Below the pieces are notes generated by a model. That model was not told the origin of the DNA. It worked only from the letters and a program-made list of their open reading frames with translations, and did not search any database. A stretch of 33,339 bases of DNA from an uncultured Candidatus Saccharibacteria bacterium (GTDB lineage Bacteria; Patescibacteriota; Minisyncoccia; Phycocordibacterales; WO2-35-19): positions 1 to 33,339 of the forward strand of contig CAZLFM010000003.1 of assembly GCA_964558845.1 (NCBI GenBank), given 5' to 3'. Every line of letters begins with the position of its first letter. The first letter of the stretch is position 1. Below are positions 1 through 20,062 of this stretch, piece after piece. The position numbers were made by a program, and so were the translations under genes.

Positions 1-75
1 AAATACCCCCTTCTAGCCTCCACCCTCTCCCAAAACCAAATCCATTTGGAGTAACGATGGGTTTTAATATTTTAG

Positions 76-148
76 TGCACGCGGTAGGACTCGAACCTAC
101 GGCCACCGAGGTATAAGCTCGGCGCTCTACCAACTGAGCTACGCGTGC
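76..148 (-). tRNA. tRNA-Ile with anticodon UAU (TAT)
   Basis: The reverse complement folds as a cloverleaf. Acceptor GCACGCG/CGCGTGC, D-stem GCTC/GAGC, anticodon stem CCGAG/CTCGG with loop CTTATAC (anticodon TAT), T-arm GTAGG-TTCGAGT-CCTAC, discriminator A. No CCA is encoded. Confidence 0.85.
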
Positions 149-3148: not shown

Positions 3149-3559
3149 GGGAACGATCGGTTTAGACGAATTTGTACTTTGAAAAGTGTTGTGTGGTAGA
3201 GCACCGTTAACTCTTTAATCTGACGGAAAGCATAAGTGCAAAAAACACTCTTGCAAAAGCAAAATCTGTTGTTTCTCCATTTTTTGGAGTCAACGATTTT
3301 GACTTCGCTTTCGTTCGCGCTTAATTTTAAGTAGAACCTAAGTGACGATCATCTTTCTTTCGTCCGTAGGAAAGCCTGATTGTAATAAACCGGACTAGAC
3401 TACAGTTGCTGTCTCGCAATTGTAGCGACAAATTGAGGCTTGGCTTCTCTTTATTTTGTCAGGTTCGAGAAGAAAAGCTGAAACAAACAAATCTGACTAG
3501 ACCACATAGAAATACTTTCAAAACTCTTTCGGACGGGAGTTCGATTCTCCCCGTTTCCA
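3149..3559 (+). ncRNA. ssrA: tmRNA (SsrA)
   Basis: The 5' GGGAACG pairs with the 3' CGTTTCC, including a G3:U70 pair (alanine identity). T-arm GGGAG-TTCGATT-CTCCC, discriminator A. The 5' GGTTTAGACG resembles the conserved GGAUUCGACG. An internal tag frame ends ...GVNDFDFAFVRA-TAA at 3322-3324. The resume codon is uncertain, with GCA candidates at 3238, 3253 and 3259. No CCA is encoded. Confidence 0.85.
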
Positions 3560-3619
3560 CAAAAAGTCCTTATTTTCCAACATATTTTTATACCCAAACA
3601 TTACAAAATCAAAAAATAC

Positions 3620-8269: not shown

Positions 8270-8429
8270 TGAGGCGTATCCCGTAGTAGATTTTGGCTAT
8301 GATTCCTGTGTCATCGTGCTTTAGCACTTAGCCCAAATTCACTACGGGACGTATCCACAGCTCCCCTGTCAAGGTATTGCACTAAAAAATCCTTAAATAT
8401 ATACTTGGCAGTAGGAGGAATTAAAAGGG

Positions 8430-8465
8430 CCCGCCCGCCTCGCAAGCGAGAGCGTTGCGGGCGGG
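8430..8465. repeat. GC-rich hairpin (family copy A) in the hup leader
   Basis: CCCGCCCGC (8430-8438) pairs with GCGGGCGGG (8457-8465), 9 bp. It encloses the mini-hairpin CTCG-caag-CGAG. Confidence 0.8.
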
Positions 8466-8509
8466 AGGAAATTTATAAGCTAATTTACTTGCGAAAGCAG
8501 GTTAAAAAT

Positions 8510-8782
8510 ATGAATAAAGCAGATTTGGCAAATGCAGTCCACGGCCTAATCGGTGGCACCAAGGTGCAAGCCGAAGAAGTTGTAGAGACAATTATTAGAG
8601 AAATCACCAAAACTCTCAAGAGTGGTGGCGAAGTATCAGTAGCCGGCCTTGGTATCTTTTCAACCAAGACAAGGGCCGCTAGAACAGCTCGCAACCCAAG
8701 AACTGGTGAGAGCGTTCAGGTCCCTGCTATGAAGGTGCCTAAGTTCAGAGCTGCAAAGGCTTTGAAAGACGCCGTTAAATAG
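8510..8782 (+). CDS. hup: HU/IHF-family DNA-binding protein
   Basis: 90 aa with MNKADLANAV...GFGIFS-like core, RTARNPRTGESVQVPA arm and PKFRAAKALKDAV. The ORF-track start at 8405 (TTG) merely reads through a GC-rich hairpin. Confidence 0.9.
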   Translation: MNKADLANAVHGLIGGTKVQAEEVVETIIREITKTLKSGGEVSVAGLGIFSTKTRAARTARNPRTGESVQVPAMKVPKFRAAKALKDAVK

Positions 8783-9791: not shown

Positions 9792-10454
9792 TCATAAAAC
9801 TCTATCAATCCAAGCCAAAATTAACCTATGCAAGTTAACACCAAATCTCTTATCTCTAAAACCTACCAAGGACAGATGGGCAGTCCCAAAAGGAAGTTTG
9901 CCCCTTTTATTAACTTTTTTATTATTTCTACGATCTACTATAGACTTAAGAAACTGACTAATCGGTATACCAGTTTCTTTTGACCAAAAATTCACGCATT
10001 TTTCTTCGTCATTATCCGGATATAGATGGATACGGATTCTTAGGTTTTTTGTTTCGAGCCCACATATCTCCTTCAACCATCTTATGGAAAACTTTATTAT
10101 TTTGGGATCCGCATTGGTAATTCTTGTTGAATCGAAAGATTTTGTACCTTCCCCAATATACACCCCCAAACCAAGCATGAATAAATCTCTTTTTGATAAC
10201 TTACCTATATCTTTTTCGGCTCGTATCTTAGCACTATCAAGACTCTTAACTTTTATCAAGTGTTTCTTGAGCCCAGACGCTGTTCTTGCTTTTCCAATCG
10301 TATCTAGAGTATATTTGTTTGGACTGTAATCTATGTTGGTCAACCACTCACTCAACGTACTTTTTGGAATTTGTGTTAATTTAGAAATATAACTATAAGA
10401 ATAACCCTCTTTTCTCAAGCCCAGAGCCTTTTGTTTTACTTCGTAAACATACAT
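9792..10454 (-). CDS. HTH plus LAGLIDADG-like (single-motif) endonuclease-like protein
   Basis: 220 aa. N-terminal HTH (YSYISKLTQIPKSTLSEW) and a LAGLIDADG-like block LFMLGLGVYIGEGTK. It ends 14 nt upstream of tRNA-Gly(UCC) on the same strand. The call rests on motif recognition only. Confidence 0.5.
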   Translation of the reverse strand: MYVYEVKQKALGLRKEGYSYSYISKLTQIPKSTLSEWLTNIDYSPNKYTLDTIGKARTASGLKKHLIKVKSLDSAKIRAEKDIGKLSKRDLFMLGLGVYIGEGTKSFDSTRITNADPKIIKFSIRWLKEICGLETKNLRIRIHLYPDNDEEKCVNFWSKETGIPISQFLKSIVDRRNNKKVNKRGKLPFGTAHLSLVGFRDKRFGVNLHRLILAWIDRVL

Positions 10455-10524: not shown

Positions 10525-10827
10525 CTACTTAAAGCTGTGGACTCTTTGGGAAACTTTTACCAGAGTTTGAAAATCATCTTCATGGAGAATTTTGTTTTTG
10601 CGTTCAAAGCCACACACCTGGCACTTTTGAAGGATGGACCATTCTCCCCCACTCTCTGAAGCTCCAATCGGCGCCATCATGCCACCACAACTTGAAGCCC
10701 TATCACCCGGATCAATATCCACGTGTTTACTCCAGAGGCACTTTGGGCAGTGATTGGTGTAACCGCGTCCAATTACTATGGTTCCACATTTCTCACAAGT
10801 AAAGTTTTCTACTCTTTTCTTAAACAT
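10525..10827 (-). CDS. RNHCP-domain zinc-ribbon protein
   Basis: 100 aa with CEKCG...YTNHCPKCLWSKHVD...CGGMM...CQVCG, the RNHCP motif plus Cys pairs. Confidence 0.7.
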   Translation of the reverse strand: MFKKRVENFTCEKCGTIVIGRGYTNHCPKCLWSKHVDIDPGDRASSCGGMMAPIGASESGGEWSILQKCQVCGFERKNKILHEDDFQTLVKVSQRVHSFK

Positions 10828-11400: not shown

Positions 11401-11457
11401 AAAACAATTATACCAAATTTTATTAAAATTATGTTCTATGCTATAGTGGCAAAATTA

Positions 11458-11497
11458 CGGAGCGTAGTACAGTGGTAGTATTGAGTGGTTTACAGGA
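11458..11497 (+). pseudogene. 5' half-copy of tRNA-Pro (no 3' half)
   Basis: CGGAGCGTAGTACAGTGGTAGTAT matches the first 24 nt of the intact tRNA-Pro (CGGGGCGTAGTATAGTGGCAGTAT) with 3 mismatches. No complementary anticodon-stem strand, T-arm or acceptor 3' strand follows. Confidence 0.6.
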
Positions 11498-11526
11498 AAG
11501 AAAATTTAAAACAAAATAGTGATACA

Positions 11527-11597
11527 CGGGGCGTAGTATAGTGGCAGTATATATGGTTTGGGACCATAAGGTCCGAGTTCGATTCTCGGCGCCCCGA
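11527..11597 (+). tRNA. tRNA-Pro (UGG)
   Basis: CGGGGCG-TA-GTAT-AGTGGCA-GTAT-A-TATGG-TTTGGGA-CCATA-AGGT-CCGAG-TTCGATT-CTCGG-CGCCCCG-A. The C1:G72 pair is typical of bacterial tRNA-Pro. Confidence 0.9.
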
Positions 11598-11609
11598 CAA
11601 AGGTAGAAA

Positions 11610-12182: not shown

Positions 12183-12253
12183 GCGGCCATGGTTTAGTGG
12201 TAGAACATATCCTTGCCAAGGATAAGACGGGAGTTCGATTCTCCCTGGCCGCA
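12183..12253 (+). tRNA. tRNA-Gly (GCC)
   Basis: GCGGCCA-TG-GTTT-AGTGGTA-GAAC-A-TATCC-TTGCCAA-GGATA-AGAC-GGGAG-TTCGATT-CTCCC-TGGCCGC-A. Confidence 0.92.
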
Positions 12254-12286
12254 CAGCAAAAAATCGCCGCCGTAGTTCAATGGATA

Positions 12287-12305
12287 CCCGCCCGACTCGC
12301 CTGAC
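12287..12305. repeat. GC-rich arm (left) of hairpin family copy B
   Basis: CCCGCCCGACTCGCCTGAC. CCCGCCC pairs with GGGCGGG (12393-12399) and GCCTGAC pairs with GTCAGGC (12386-12392). Confidence 0.8.
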
Positions 12306-12377
12306 GCCTTTATAGTTCAATGGATAGAACAATCCCGTCCTAAGGGATAGATGTAGGTTCGATTCCTACTAAAGGCG
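12306..12377 (+). tRNA. tRNA-Arg (CCU)
   Basis: GCCTTTA-TA-GTTC-AATGGATA-GAAC-A-ATCCC-GTCCTAA-GGGAT-AGAT-GTAGG-TTCGATT-CCTAC-TAAAGGC-G. All stems are fully paired. Confidence 0.88.
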
Positions 12378-12380
12378 CAA

Positions 12381-12399
12381 GACGAGTCAGGCGGGCGGG
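12381..12399. repeat. GC-rich arm (right) of hairpin family copy B
   Basis: GACGAGTCAGGCGGGCGGG, complementary to 12287-12305 with a 5-nt bulge on the left arm. Confidence 0.8.
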
Positions 12400-12494
12400 G
12401 AACAATCCCGTCCTAACGTCTAGATACAGGTCCGATTCCTGTCGGTGGCACAATATTTATGCACCAAATTTTTGGTGTGTTATTATGGCAATAT

Positions 12495-12566
12495 GCTCCC
12501 GTGGTGAAATGGATATCATGCGTGCCTTCGAAGCACTTGTTGGGGGTTCGAATCCCTCCGGGAGCG
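12495..12566 (+). tRNA. tRNA-Arg (UCG)
   Basis: GCTCCCG-TG-GTGA-AATGGATA-TCAT-G-CGTGC-CTTCGAA-GCACT-TGTT-GGGGG-TTCGAAT-CCCTC-CGGGAGC-G. There is one C:U mismatch at 27:43. Confidence 0.85.
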
Positions 12567-12571
12567 CAAAG

Positions 12572-12715: not shown

Positions 12716-14203
12716 ATGAAAAACAACGCTCAAATAGAAAAATTTAATATACCAGAAGAGGTTTCTCGTGTAACAAAGGCGCTAAAAGATGCTAATTTTG
12801 AAGCATTTCTTGTTGGTGGCTGTGTCCGTGACCTATTTATGGGCAGAAAACCAAAGGATTGGGACATAACAACCAATGCCACCCCCGAACAAATAATCCC
12901 CTTATTTTCAAAGACTTTTTACGAAAACAACTTTGGCACCGTAGCGGTTGTCAATGAAGAAACAAAAGACGAGAGTTTGAAGATAATAGAAATAACACCA
13001 TATAGGCTTGAAAGCTCGTATTCTGACCACAGACGACCGAACGAGGTGTCTTTCAGCACAGACATCCTTGATGACCTCAAAAGACGTGATTTTACAATAA
13101 ACGCAATCGCTTACGAACCAGACACAGCCGAAATCATAGATCCATTCTTTGGAGTTGCCGATCTTGCCAGAAGAACCATAAAAGCCGTGGGTAATCCAAA
13201 AGATAGGTTTTTTGAGGATGGACTACGTATTTTAAGAGCTGTTAGGTTACACGTGGAACTAGACTTCCCTATTGATCCAGAAACAGAAAGGGCGATTGCC
13301 GATAATAGCCATATAATAAAGGAGATTTCAAAAGAAAGAGTTCGAGACGAGCTAATCAAAATAATCATGTCGGATAGACCAATGAATGGCTTTCTAATTC
13401 TCAAAAAACTCGGCCTATTGCAATACATAATACCAAAACTCGAAGAAGCCATTGGAATAGAACAAAAAGGTGTTCATATTTTTGATGTTTGGACGCATCT
13501 TTTAAAGAGTTTGCAACATTCCGCAGACAAGAAATATCCGTTACACGTGAGACTTTCTGCCCTATTTCACGATATAGCAAAGCCAGAAACAAGGAGATTT
13601 GACCAAAATACCAAAGAATATAGCTTTTATGGACACGAAGTGGTGGGTTCACGTGTAACAAAGAAGATATTGGAGGATCTAAAGTTTTCACGTGAAACAA
13701 TTGATAAGGTGGTCAAGCTGGTTAGGTGGCATATGTTCTTCTCTGACACAGAGCAAATAACCCTTTCGGCTGTAAGGAGGCTTTTGGTAAACGTCGGGAA
13801 AGAGAATATCTGGGATTTGATAGATGTAAGGATGTGCGACCGAATTGGCACAGGAAGACCAAAGGAAAACCCTTATCGCTTGCGCAAATATCAGGCAATG
13901 ATAGACGAGGCTATGAGAGATCCTATATCAGTAGCGATGTTGAAAACAAATGGCCAACGAATAATGGACGTACTAAAAACAACCCCTGGACCACAAATAG
14001 GCTACATATTGAATGCCCTCCTTGAAGAAGTTTTGGAGGATCCGTCCTTGAACACCGAGGAGTATTTGGATAAAAGGACACTTGAATTATCAAAAATGTC
14101 TCTTAATGAACTTAGGGTTTTAGCCGAAAAAGGTAAGTCAAAAAAAGAAGAATTAGAGGAAGGGGAGATAAAGAAAATCAGAAGCAAACACCACGTGGAA
14201 TAG
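12716..14203 (+). CDS. cca: CCA-adding tRNA nucleotidyltransferase with HD domain
   Basis: 495 aa. Head-domain motif LVGGCVRDLFMGRKPKDWDITT and RRDFTINA, with C-terminal HD (LFHDIAKP). I chose the ATG at 12716. The ORF-track start at 12485 reads through tRNA-Arg(UCG). Confidence 0.9.
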   Translation: MKNNAQIEKFNIPEEVSRVTKALKDANFEAFLVGGCVRDLFMGRKPKDWDITTNATPEQIIPLFSKTFYENNFGTVAVVNEETKDESLKIIEITPYRLESSYSDHRRPNEVSFSTDILDDLKRRDFTINAIAYEPDTAEIIDPFFGVADLARRTIKAVGNPKDRFFEDGLRILRAVRLHVELDFPIDPETERAIADNSHIIKEISKERVRDELIKIIMSDRPMNGFLILKKLGLLQYIIPKLEEAIGIEQKGVHIFDVWTHLLKSLQHSADKKYPLHVRLSALFHDIAKPETRRFDQNTKEYSFYGHEVVGSRVTKKILEDLKFSRETIDKVVKLVRWHMFFSDTEQITLSAVRRLLVNVGKENIWDLIDVRMCDRIGTGRPKENPYRLRKYQAMIDEAMRDPISVAMLKTNGQRIMDVLKTTPGPQIGYILNALLEEVLEDPSLNTEEYLDKRTLELSKMSLNELRVLAEKGKSKKEELEEGEIKKIRSKHHVE

Positions 14204-16725: not shown

Positions 16726-17652
16726 CTAACCTCGTTTGTTATGGAATTTTTTGTGGATGTCGCGGAGGTGGCGGTCGGTCACGTGGGTGTAGATTTGAGT
16801 GGTGCCGATGTTGGCATGACCAAGGAGGGCTTGCACACTACGCAGGTCGGCGCCGTTGCCTAAAAGGTCGGTGGCGAAACAATGCCGGATAACGTGCGGA
16901 GTAACTTTTTTGGAAATACCGGCCTTGATAGCGTAGTGTTTGACGATTCTTTCGATTGAGCGCTTGGTCAGCGGGCCGATTTTGCCACGATTGGATTTGT
17001 TTTCGACATCGAGCTGGACAAAGAGCGCGTCGTCCAGGTCCTTTCTTTTATCTAAATATTCTTTAACCATCTTTTTGGCCGTGTCGGAAAGAAAAACCAC
17101 TCGCACCTTGCCACCCTTACCCCTGACCGAAAGTTCATCGGCTCGCAAATTTATATCGCGAGTCAGGGCACAGAGCTCGGAAACACGCAAACCAGTAGAG
17201 AAGAGTAGGTGGAGTATGGCCCTGTCGCGCATCGCTTTGAGCTCACCCCCCTTAGGTGCATCGAGCAGAGCCTCTAATTCTTCGGTCGTAATCAAATCCA
17301 GCGAGCGTTCGGGAGTTTTGGCTAGTTCTATTCTTTCGGCCGGCAGAGTTTTGACTTCTTGCCGAGTCATATACTTTAGAAAGGCTCGCAAGGCTATAAG
17401 ATAGTAGTTTTGGGTTTTGCGCGAGAGCGATGCGCCTGTCTTTTTGTTGTTGCCCGAGACTTGGCGGTTGAGCCAGAGGCGATACTCCCTCACACTCGTA
17501 TCAGTAATCGCTTCGGGGCTTTGGTCTTTCAAAAACACCAGAAAGCGCGTCAAATAACGGTCATAATTCTCTATCGTGTTGAGAGAACGACCTTTTTCGA
17601 TCTCTACATATTCCAAAAACTGGCGTTTGAGCTGATCTAGGGTTTGCGACAT
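16726..17652 (-). CDS. xerC: Tyrosine site-specific recombinase (XerC/XerD family)
   Basis: 308 aa. SAM-like N-domain, catalytic TGLRVSE, HVIRHCFAT and LLGHANIGTTQIYTHV. Confidence 0.9.
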   Translation of the reverse strand: MSQTLDQLKRQFLEYVEIEKGRSLNTIENYDRYLTRFLVFLKDQSPEAITDTSVREYRLWLNRQVSGNNKKTGASLSRKTQNYYLIALRAFLKYMTRQEVKTLPAERIELAKTPERSLDLITTEELEALLDAPKGGELKAMRDRAILHLLFSTGLRVSELCALTRDINLRADELSVRGKGGKVRVVFLSDTAKKMVKEYLDKRKDLDDALFVQLDVENKSNRGKIGPLTKRSIERIVKHYAIKAGISKKVTPHVIRHCFATDLLGNGADLRSVQALLGHANIGTTQIYTHVTDRHLRDIHKKFHNKRG

Positions 17653-17749: not shown

Positions 17750-18277
17750 ATGAAGGAGGTTAATAACGTCGCATACATTGACGGAGCAAACTTGCACAGA
17801 GGCGTCAAAAGCATGGGTTGGAAATTAGATTACACAAGGTTTCGCGTTTGGCTTAAAGATAAATACAAAATAGAAAGAGCTTATATTTTTATAGGCCTAA
17901 TTCCAGCTTACAAAGACCTGTACAAGTATCTTCAAGAGTCTGGTTTTATCCTAGTTTATAAAGAAGTCATTTATGATGACTCGGGAAAACCGAAAGGAAA
18001 TTGCGATGCAGATTTGGTATTACAGGTTGTGGTAGATTCCTATGAGAATAAATTTGATAAAGCCATTATAGTCGCGAGTGACGGAGATTATGCAGGGCTA
18101 GTTAAATTTTTGCTAGAGAAAAATAAATTTGAAGTAATTTTATCACCACATCCAAAGGATAAGTGTTCGGTCTTACTTAAAAGAATTGGGACAAAAATAT
18201 CTTACATAAATGATCAACGGTCCTTACTAGAACTTAGTATAAAAGAAAAAGCCCCCGATGGAGACAGAACTCCATAA
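17750..18277 (+). CDS. LabA/NYN-domain protein (putative RNase), paralog 1
   Basis: 175 aa with AYIDGANL, CDADLVLQ and ASDGDYAGLV acidic motifs of the NYN/DUF88 fold. The gene is visibly AT-rich. Confidence 0.75.
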   Translation: MKEVNNVAYIDGANLHRGVKSMGWKLDYTRFRVWLKDKYKIERAYIFIGLIPAYKDLYKYLQESGFILVYKEVIYDDSGKPKGNCDADLVLQVVVDSYENKFDKAIIVASDGDYAGLVKFLLEKNKFEVILSPHPKDKCSVLLKRIGTKISYINDQRSLLELSIKEKAPDGDRTP

Positions 18278-19531: not shown

Positions 19532-20062
19532 ATGTCAGTAATAAAGCACTCCGAACAAAGAGTCGGAATTTTTATAGATACACAAAATCTCTATCACAGC
19601 GCAAAAAATATTTACAAAGCCCGAGTCAATTTTGGCAGTGTCCTCAAAGAGGCGCTCGGCAACAGAGTTTTGATTAGAGCCATAGCCTACGTCATCACCA
19701 CAGAGAGTGGGGAAGAGCGAGGGTTTTTCGACGCCCTAAATAAACTAGGTATAGAAACAAAAACCAAGGACCTACAAATTTTTGCCGGTGGCGCCAAGAA
19801 AGGAGATTGGGATGTTGGGCTGGCCGTAGACGCAATCAAATTTGCCCCGAAGCTCGATGTTGCAGTTATTGTAGCCGGAGACGGCGACTTTGTGCCATTA
19901 GTCGAATATCTAAAATCAGAAGGTTGCCAAGTTGAAGTAGTATCGTTTGGTAAATCAACTTCCGCAAGATTAATTGAAGTGGCCGACGATTTTCTCGACC
20001 TCGACCAAAACCCACGTAAATATTTGCTCGGTAATTCTAGAACAAGGAACAATTCTTTATAA
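19532..20062 (+). CDS. LabA/NYN-domain protein (putative RNase), paralog 2
   Basis: 176 aa with GIFIDTQNL, GDWDVGLAVD and AGDGDFVPLVEYL. Confidence 0.8.
   Translation: MSVIKHSEQRVGIFIDTQNLYHSAKNIYKARVNFGSVLKEALGNRVLIRAIAYVITTESGEERGFFDALNKLGIETKTKDLQIFAGGAKKGDWDVGLAVDAIKFAPKLDVAVIVAGDGDFVPLVEYLKSEGCQVEVVSFGKSTSARLIEVADDFLDLDQNPRKYLLGNSRTRNNSL

Follow-up and report, generated by a model that had tools for sequence, protein, structure and literature searches.

An arginine transfer RNA gene nested in the D-loop of another, between the halves of a GC-rich palindrome, in a Patescibacteria contig

Introduction

How does a bacterial genome come to hold one transfer RNA (tRNA) gene inside another, and what becomes of the two genes once they are nested? 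The question is raised by a 33,339-nucleotide (nt) stretch of contig CAZLFM010000003.1, called the window below, in which a complete tRNA-Arg(CCU) gene lies in the D-loop of a second tRNA-Arg(CCU) gene that is broken between its nucleotides 21 and 22. The locus bears on the old question of whether mobile insertions give rise to interrupted and split tRNA genes. A preliminary description of the window had set out the nested layout, and its sequence-level statements hold except for two details, concerning a T-loop and a pentanucleotide, that are taken up below. Here we describe the nest, compare it with related loci (designated by numbers prefixed with L), and weigh the explanations that could account for it.

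An intact tRNA gene lies between palindrome halves inside a second tRNA gene

All parts of the nest lie on the forward strand. The outer tRNA-Arg(CCU) gene opens with a 5' piece at 12266-12286 (GCCGCCGTAGTTCAATGGATA) that comprises the acceptor 5' strand GCCGCCG, nucleotides 8-9, the D-stem 5' strand GTTC and the D-loop sequence AATGGATA up to nucleotide 21. There follow arm 1 (12287-12305, CCCGCCCGACTCGCCTGAC), which is the 19-nt left half of a GC-rich imperfect palindrome, the inner gene (12306-12377), which encodes no CCA end, and arm 2 (12378-12395, CAAGACGAGTCAGGCGGG), the 18-nt right half, with a conserved C·A mismatch between 12293 and 12389. The last four nucleotides of arm 2, CGGG, are duplicated in tandem at 12396-12399. 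The outer gene then resumes with nucleotides 22-38 (12400-12416, GAACAATCCCGTCCTAA), an inner-type sequence that copies 12327-12343 exactly, and ends with nucleotides 39-73 (12417-12450), which hold the anticodon-stem 3' strand CGTCT, the variable loop, the T-arm ACAGG-TCCGATT-CCTGT, the acceptor 3' strand CGGTGGC and the discriminator A. The insert of 113 nt can be divided into a 109-nt cassette, made up of the complete tRNA-Arg(CCU) gene and the two palindrome halves, and the 4-nt slip duplication. Two direct repeats that had been reported to tie the inner and outer genes together are both exact, one of 14 nt (12273-12286 and 12313-12326) and one of 17 nt (12327-12343 and 12400-12416). As a whole, the 185-nt region is predicted to fold at -78.8 kcal/mol, against -55.1 ± 4.4 kcal/mol for shuffled sequences (z = -5.4, 0/200).

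Running tRNA callers over the region, as the preliminary description had proposed, returns a single tRNA-Arg(CCU), which ARAGORN and Rfam place at 12306 to 12377 or 12378. This inner gene scores 67.3 bits with RF00005, for which the gathering threshold is 29 bits; every one of its stems is perfect, and it conforms to the canonical bacterial cloverleaf. Judged by its sequence, it is most probably the working gene of the nest.

The arms pair without gaps in a conserved register common to all nests, 12287-12304 with 12378-12395, where 14 of the 18 positions are paired and the helix is coaxial with the inner acceptor stem; CGGG at 12396-12399 is left over as an extra tandem copy. The arms had been described as pairing over 14 base pairs (bp) with one bulge. 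Their complementarity stands, but the bulged register is an alternative to the conserved one, made possible by the duplication of CGGG. At -28.2 kcal/mol, the leader/trailer duplex of the inner tRNA ranks among the top few of 273 tRNAs from the window and 97 related loci, and the tRNAs that rank above or level with it all belong to homologous nests.

The site is empty in one relative and eroded in another

The preliminary description had also called for a search of related genomes for an uninterrupted version of the outer gene, and such a gene is found at the syntenic site in L002, whose cca gene (encoding the CCA-adding enzyme) is 80% identical to that of the window. It lies between tRNA-Gly(GCC) and tRNA-Arg(UCG), scores 61.7 bits and reads GCCGCCG TA GTTC AATGGATA GAAC A AGACA CTCCTAA CGTCT AGAT ACAGG TCCGATT CCTGT CGGTGGC A. 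Positions 12258-12286 and 12411-12451 of the window are together 100% identical to L002 (12417-12450 corresponds to L002 1676-1709), and where L002 has the 11 nt GAACAAGACAC the window has 124 nt. Over outer-gene nucleotides 1-21 and 39-72, the two are identical at 55/55 positions; the neighbouring tRNA-Gly genes differ at 3/72 and the tRNA-Arg(UCG) genes at 14/75 aligned columns. By this comparison, L002 evidently holds the empty site, and the lack of any divergence between the outer exons suggests that the insertion event, or else a recombinational exchange, was recent.

When the insert is taken out of the window, the two outer pieces (12266-12286 and 12400-12450) join into a 72-nt sequence with perfect acceptor, D and T stems, of which the acceptor and D stems had been predicted to form on removal of the insert. 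Only two of the five anticodon-stem pairs form, so that the sequence fails as a canonical tRNA on this stem, and ARAGORN accepts no gene in it. The stretch 12400-12416 stands in place of GAACAAGACACTCCTAA of the uninterrupted gene, and the anticodon stem is destroyed because this inner-type 17-nt tract replaced the gene's own sequence. The tract may have been converted from the inner copy 73 nt upstream, or it may be a donor exon that was co-converted during recombination of the cassette. An earlier suggestion that the locus is a rearrangement scar fits this one local detail and not the rest of the locus.

Decay of the outer gene thus appears to have begun in the window copy. The preliminary description had come to the same view on two grounds, of which the broken anticodon stem holds and the T-loop TCCGATT does not: this T-loop occurs in intact orthologues (L002, the inner genes of L003 and L086, and the outer gene of L082), which rules it out as a sign of decay. 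Since the L002 gene has both AGACA and TCCGATT, CGTCT must once have paired with AGACA, its true partner, and TCCGATT is a lineage trait. The pentanucleotide AGACG at 12380-12384, which had been proposed as the displaced partner of the orphan CGTCT, is complementary to it by coincidence; it belongs to arm 2 and corresponds to AGGCG in L093, where it pairs with arm 1, and this homology, together with AGACA in L002, excludes the proposal. As an observation in its own right, TCCGATT (window 12430-12436; L002 1638-1710; L003 3804-3876) puts C55 in place of the near-universal U55, the site of pseudouridine 55, in intact genes of several lineages.

A different allele is found in L003 (75% identical), where an inner-type gene occupies the same site behind a 48-nt AT-rich leader. 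Significant homology links this leader to the outer 5' piece and arm 1 of the window (alignment score 30; shuffled sequences 15 ± 3.5, 0/2000), and most of the differences are GC-to-AT transitions; L003 has neither arm 2 nor the outer 3' part. We interpret this allele as the decayed, largely erased end state of a nest. The inner tRNA of the window and the tRNA-Arg(CCU) gene of L003 (3804-3875) are identical at 71/72 positions, a likeness that points to recent exchange of this gene or else to constraint of unusual strength. The flanking genes of the two loci are less alike, at 58/72 for tRNA-Gly(GCC) and 62/75 for tRNA-Arg(UCG).

The nested architecture recurs with conserved arms and an asymmetric fate of the two genes

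Metagenomes were scanned with a pattern of two D-arm 5' copies 16-40 nt apart that left the arms unspecified, and 16 contigs from 14 datasets were found to carry the nested architecture. The arm 1 motif was present in 14/14 D-loop matches. Among the 12 unique D-loop nests, window included, the break is always between nucleotides 21 and 22 and arm 1 is always 19 nt long and directly follows nucleotide 21; arm 2, where present, is 18 nt long and ends directly before nucleotide 22. In L087 and L088 the cassette lies instead in the anticodon loop, between nucleotides 35 and 36. The gene contexts of the nests are bacterial (lepA, rnpA, yidC, nusG, ruvX-like) and vary from contig to contig.

Arm 1 of the window recurs unchanged in L084 and L091 and at 16/19 positions in L093, which has CGGA-CGGA at the position of the CGGG duplication; no such duplication is seen in the type-ii arms of L081, L082, L086, L089 and L096. 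Across the seven complete cassettes, 81% of cells in the arm helix are paired over its 18 pairs, and six pairs have changed on both sides. For the nest structure as a whole, 90% of cells are paired, against 77% after shuffling (0/500) and 36-47% in slid controls. The outermost 10 nt at each end, CCYGCCYGMC...GKCRGGCRGG, are kept both in the nests and in the copies without a tRNA described below, and so form terminal inverted repeats of the kind that mark miniature inverted-repeat transposable elements (MITEs).

The two genes of a nest fare differently. Inner genes are intact in all 12 nests, with perfect or near-perfect stems and Rfam scores of 57-74 bits, whereas ARAGORN accepts the healed outer gene in 4/12 (L086, L082/L094, L089 and L081; Fisher p = 0.0013), the others being point-broken, truncated or deleted. 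L093 and L096 have decayed outer genes. L083 and L095 are population variants whose core is identical to that of L082 and which have lost the outer 3' part by deletion or replacement, and L084, L091 and L092 have neither arm 2 nor the outer 3' part. The loci can be arranged as a series of stages, from the empty site of L002 through nests with an intact outer gene (L086, L082, L089), the partly disabled window copy and truncated forms (L083, L095, L096) to the nearly erased allele of L003.

Identity of the arms and identity of the inner gene mostly go together (84% and 96% between the window and L093, 89% and 92% between L081 and L096, 84% and 90% between L089 and L082), so the cassette behaves for the most part like a heritable unit. 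Related cassettes also lie in unrelated outer genes, that of L089 in tRNA-Arg(CCU) and that of L082 in tRNA-Arg(UCU). In all nests whose outer anticodon loop can be read, the two genes have the same anticodon, and the simplest reading of this match would be that only those insertions survive whose cargo replaces the function that they disrupt.

The palindrome also occurs without a tRNA

The window holds two copies of the palindrome, the nest and a solo copy of 36 nt (CCCGCCCGCCTCGCAAGCGAGAGCGTTGCGGGCGGG) at 8430-8465, which lies between rplT and hup and is the reverse complement of L017 6925-6960. An open reading frame (ORF) at 8405-8782 overlaps it, and the Pfam HU domain begins only at residue 36 of this ORF. 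Further solo copies are intergenic in L021 and L004, and two are inserted in-frame in cca, at L030 4364-4402 (adding 13 amino acids (aa), ARLPVPEHSDGGQ) and at L004 2592-2620 (adding 9 aa, ARPNAAGGQ). The two cca inserts occupy different positions and are missing from the other cca genes aligned (window, L002, L003, L021); they are in-frame palindromes that are present or absent among orthologues, as is seen with Rickettsia palindromic elements (RPEs). A 7-aa insertion in the cca gene of L017 has a different GC-rich sequence and was not counted as a member of the family. The 1219-nt contig L087 combines both forms in one outer tRNA-Arg(UCU) gene, whose anticodon loop holds the cassette (at 35/36) and whose T-loop holds a solo palindrome of 43 nt (at 56/57). 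We also note a 7-nt direct repeat, AAAGCG(G/C), that surrounds the inner tRNA of both L087 and L088 within the palindrome and looks like a target-site duplication.

A solo copy consists of arm 1, 1-3 nt and arm 2, which means that in the nests the tRNA gene sits exactly at the apex of the palindrome. Presence and absence within a conserved ORF can only reflect insertions, and the arms would therefore be the two ends of a small mobile palindrome. From this distribution we conclude that the palindrome very probably is a small mobile element of Patescibacteria genomes that resembles RPEs in its behaviour. As to a preferred target, (G/C)TTC abuts the CCCGCCTGCC terminus at 4 of about 9 independent sites (in a D-loop, a T-loop, an anticodon loop and L021) and not at the other 5, a weak tendency in an element that is too symmetric to orient securely.

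How the nest may have arisen, and what became of the outer gene

On balance, we lean towards a tRNA-carrying palindromic insertion that makes good the function lost through it, with subsequent decay of the outer gene. The cassette would insert, or be recombined, into tRNA-Arg genes; the target gene would be destroyed, and the cargo would supply a tRNA of the same anticodon. The insertion would be tolerated, or 'self-rescuing', precisely because cargo and disrupted gene share their anticodon, and the replacement would leave the outer gene free to decay. The tRNA-Gly(GCC) gene, the nest and the tRNA-Arg(UCG) gene would be transcribed as one precursor, and the two arms would pair into an 18-bp helix on which the inner acceptor stem is stacked. 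The inner tRNA would then be freed by RNase P and by 3' processing and receive its CCA end from the enzyme encoded just downstream, with the outer pieces left as by-products.

An insertion of a miniature tRNA-carrying element into a paralogous tRNA gene was already among the readings of the preliminary description, and the empty site in L002, the 16 contigs and the palindromes without a tRNA now favour it. Several observations weigh on the other side. Mobility of the tRNA-bearing form has to be read from its distribution, since we found no transposase, recombinase or homing endonuclease beside any nest and no target-site duplication at the 12 D-loop sites, at anticodon-loop 35/36 or at T-loop 56/57, where the outer loop is restored exactly. 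The palindrome is of low copy number, with about 7 solo copies in 745 kilobases (kb) from about 97 genomes. The cargo of the D-loop nests and that of the anticodon-loop nests may be in opposite orientations relative to the asymmetric termini, although the element is too symmetric for a secure assignment; if so, two separate captures of cargo would be needed. The arms of L086 and L089 are 95% identical and their inner genes only 79%, so that arms and cargo are at times inherited apart, or gene conversion at times replaces the cargo. Part of the asymmetry between inner and outer genes is built in, because only loci with an intact inner D-arm could match the scan pattern. Despite diverged cassettes, four outer genes (L086, L082/L094, L089 and, roughly, L081) are well formed, and the outer exons of the window show 0/55 differences from L002 beside 14/75 in the adjacent tRNA-Arg(UCG); to be so well kept, an outer gene must either be under selection or have seen its insertion or an exchange very recently. 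Finally, the window is a single contig of a metagenome-assembled genome (MAG) with no close strain in the databases, and its cca protein is a singleton whose next relative is 82% identical.

Two other biological explanations have to be set against these points. One, which we consider unlikely but worth taking seriously, holds that the nests are ancient and vertically inherited, having arisen once or a few times by rearrangement. The arms would then be a processing stem (for RNase III, for example) kept by selection on the RNA, the tRNA unit would be immobile, and the differences between loci would stem from divergence and from gene conversion among tRNA-Arg paralogues. Compensatory changes in the arm helix would be expected under this account, long coaxial leader/trailer helices are common around tRNA-Pro(UGG) in the relatives, the tRNA-Arg genes here are visibly mosaic, the window and L003 have the nest at the same syntenic site, and lepA lies 2-3 kb upstream of the nest in both L081 and L093 despite their different arm subtypes. 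The solo palindromes speak against it, as their 10-nt termini are those of the nests and their differing positions in cca and in a T-loop are only explicable as insertions, and a pure processing stem needs no invariant termini with conserved C·A and U·G mismatches. An immobile unit is also hard to square with nests at two tRNA positions (21/22 and 35/36, where the orientation of the cargo relative to the termini may differ as well), with related cassettes in unrelated outer genes, and with an empty site in L002, which by cca identity is the relative nearer to the window. The other explanation, which strikes us as rather improbable, is a functional tRNA within a tRNA: RNase P and RNase Z would release the inner tRNA, and the arms would hold the outer pieces together as a two-piece tRNA or for trimming and ligation, so that one gene yields two tRNAs. 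It is attractive in that the inserts fit flush into loops (at 21/22 of the D-loop, 35/36 of the anticodon loop and 56/57 of the T-loop) and neither remove nor add tRNA nucleotides, and in that the base of the arms abuts both junctions; the four well-formed outer genes, whose stems differ in a compensated way, and the 55/55 identity of the outer exons with a functional orthologue beside a diverged neighbour tRNA would also follow from it. But the outer anticodon stem of the window is destroyed, 8/12 outer genes are broken or truncated beside inner genes that are all intact, and the intact form is found alongside variants that lack the outer 3' part (L082, L083, L095). The destroyed stem and the broken outer genes also weaken a reading of the preliminary description, in which an RNase III-type processing stem would leave a split tRNA. 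Nor does the locus look like a known intron. Its junctions lie flush at the base of a continuous 18-bp helix, with an 8-nt D-loop on the 5' side and no 3-4-3 bulge-helix-bulge motif in the fold; the insert, at 113 nt, falls short of the more than 200 nt of a group I intron, lies in a D-loop and has no Rfam intron match even at E ≤ 5; and neither the splicing endonuclease EndA nor an RNA ligase is encoded in the 33-kb window. In-frame solo copies in ORFs suggest translation rather than splicing, and RtcB does not ligate the kind of ends, 5'-phosphate and 3'-OH, that RNase P and RNase Z leave.

An artefact is far less probable than either of these. A chimera that joined reads of an outer-type strain and an inner-type strain could be suspected in a metagenome-assembled contig that has no second copy in the databases, the more so as relatives differ in whether an outer-type or an inner-type gene stands at the site. 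However, the two joins would have had to rely on shared stretches of 14 nt and 6 nt, too short for k-mer assemblers; neither of the simple alleles has the arms; and independent assemblies of 16 contigs, from 14 datasets, gave this same layout. Two further candidates were rejected. A retro-copy of a mature tRNA, suggested by the CCA that follows the discriminator in L084, L091 and L092, is not in keeping with the CAA, CAG, TAG or CAT found in other nests, and it is further weakened by the CA(A/G) that likewise follows ordinary tRNA genes of the window. An integron attC site or integrase attachment (att) site is ruled out, as there is no matching core site and no adjacent integrase.

Genomic context of the window

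The nest belongs to a cluster on the forward strand that begins with tRNA-Gly(GCC) at 12183-12254 and ends with tRNA-Arg(UCG) at 12495-12567 (both called by ARAGORN and Rfam), followed on the same strand by cca at 12716-14203 (Pfam PolyA_pol, PolyA_pol_RNAbd, HD and tRNA_NucTran2_2). As CCA is encoded in none of these tRNA genes, the tRNAs depend on the product of cca. In 80 related loci (L001-L080), the genes follow one another in the same order, Pro(UGG) - yraN - Gly(GCC) - [Arg(CCU)] - Arg(UCG) - cca.

The window is bacterial chromosome, with ftsH, smpB and the transfer-messenger RNA (tmRNA) gene, uvrD, infC, rplT, hup, yraN, cca, xth and an xerC-like gene as well as type IV pilus genes, tpiA, pgk, recJ, rnhA and comEC, and cca homologues place it among Zambryskibacteria/Paceibacterota (Patescibacteria). 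These housekeeping genes rule out an origin in a huge phage, which the tmRNA and the many tRNAs might have suggested; a phage database gave only generic tRNA matches, and scans of viral contigs found no nest.

Several other features of the window and its relatives concern tRNAs or RNA processing. Just upstream of tRNA-Pro(UGG) (11527-11598) lies a degenerate 5' fragment of a tRNA-Pro-like gene (11457-11500, CGGAGCGTAGTACAGTGGTAGTAT...), and relatives have tRNA-Pro(GGG) beside Pro(UGG). In L024 (2752-2825), and also in L044, L049, L055, L021, L033 and L051, tRNA-Pro(UGG) is enclosed in an AT-rich leader/trailer helix of about 20 bp that is coaxial with the acceptor stem, which suggests that long processing stems around tRNAs may be common in this group. 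The ORF at 9792-10454 (reverse strand, 220 aa) has a weak N-terminal helix-turn-helix and a LAGLIDADG-like motif (LGLGVYIGEGTK), with I-DmoI as its best PDB match (E = 0.44), and adjoins tRNA-Gly(UCC), at a place where L006, L008 and L017 have tRNA-Arg(CCU). A tRNA-Ile gene at 75-148 (reverse strand) has the anticodon UAU, unusual for bacteria, and the tmRNA at 3149-3560 (forward strand) encodes a tag peptide ending in ...FAFVRA and not in the usual ...LAA. Two proteins with NYN domains, predicted RNases, are encoded close together (17750-18277 and 19532-20062), and an RNHCP-domain protein is encoded at 10525-10827; in both L081 and L090, a homologue of this protein is encoded at a distance of about 450 nt from the nest.

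Comparison with known systems

If the reading that we favour is correct, a 109-nt cassette offers a new route for the replacement of tRNA genes and for their shuffling between lineages, and Patescibacteria harbour an undescribed family of GC-rich palindromic insertions that enter proteins in-frame and tRNA genes in their loops. Were the outer tRNAs after all processed into working molecules, the nest would be the first bacterial tRNA intron of such a kind, and a tRNA within a tRNA would be a bacterial counterpart, made by a mobile palindrome, of the split and intron-containing tRNAs of archaea. The favoured reading would also call for caution in annotating tRNAs in genomes of the candidate phyla radiation (CPR, Patescibacteria), as standard predictors such as ARAGORN report the inner gene only. 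The preliminary description had stated that no bacterial locus of this architecture was described, and a full-text literature search of incomplete coverage likewise turned up neither nested tRNA genes nor this palindrome family in accounts of CPR bacteria.

Archaea have transposing non-canonical tRNA introns, as well as split and tri-split tRNAs with GC-rich complementary leaders (Fujishima 2009, 2010; Randau 2005; reviewed in PMC10714607). The nests resemble these in having interruptions in D-, anticodon and T-loops, related inserts in different tRNAs and GC-rich complementary segments at the breaks. They differ from archaeal introns in that the host is bacterial (tmRNA, SmpB, FtsH), the junctions have no bulge-helix-bulge and the insert holds a whole tRNA; most of the interrupted outer genes are decaying, which suggests that, unlike archaeal introns, the insert is not removed. 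A split tRNA of the Nanoarchaeum type, with halves that are encoded at separate loci under promoters of their own, is a poor match as well, for the outer pieces share a transcription unit, in which 113 nt separate them, and there is no bulge-helix-bulge.

Integrative elements that target tRNA genes are kilobases long, encode their own integrase, enter at the 3' end of the tRNA and duplicate only the part of the tRNA that serves as att site. The nest shares with them the principle that insertion is neutralised by an element-borne replacement of the disrupted sequence. It differs in that a 109-nt cassette with no enzyme gene brings a whole tRNA into a D-loop, and the nearest integrase-family ORF in the window (16726-17652, XerC/D-like) lies 4 kb away, outside the repeats. 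Intervening sequences of bacterial 23S ribosomal RNA (rRNA) are excised by RNase III without religation, and the fragmented rRNA stays functional. They too are helix-forming inserts in a bacterial gene for a structural RNA, and an analogous cut in the arm helix is conceivable; a tRNA split at 21/22, though, is not known to function, unlike fragmented 23S rRNA.

The closest parallels are with small palindromic DNA. Repetitive extragenic palindromic (REP) sequences are, as their name says, extragenic, and REPs, the bacterial interspersed mosaic elements (BIMEs) and elements of the IS200/IS605 type are tied to RAYT or TnpA Y1 transposases. Like these, the palindromes described here are GC-rich and imperfect, conserve mismatches in their stem, leave no target-site duplication and possibly have a short target; unlike them, they have copies inside genes, and the window shows neither a Y1 transposase nor a RAYT gene, with no match to Y1_Tnp among its ORFs. 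We know of no REP, and of no palindrome-associated transposable element (PATE), that has a tRNA gene as cargo. RPEs, said to have been described by Ogata and colleagues in 2000, are palindromic selfish DNA of about 100-150 nt that lies in-frame in conserved protein genes and in RNA genes and is tolerated by the host. Solo palindromes in cca (L030, L004) and in a tRNA T-loop repeat this pattern in Patescibacteria. The likeness is one of behaviour; the family here differs in being only 36-43 nt long, GC-rich in an AT-rich genome and of low copy number, and in having a subfamily with a complete tRNA gene at its apex. The nest thus seems to be a new twist on RPE-, REP- and MITE-type DNA, in which a whole tRNA gene is the cargo and comes to lie nested in a tRNA gene of the same anticodon.

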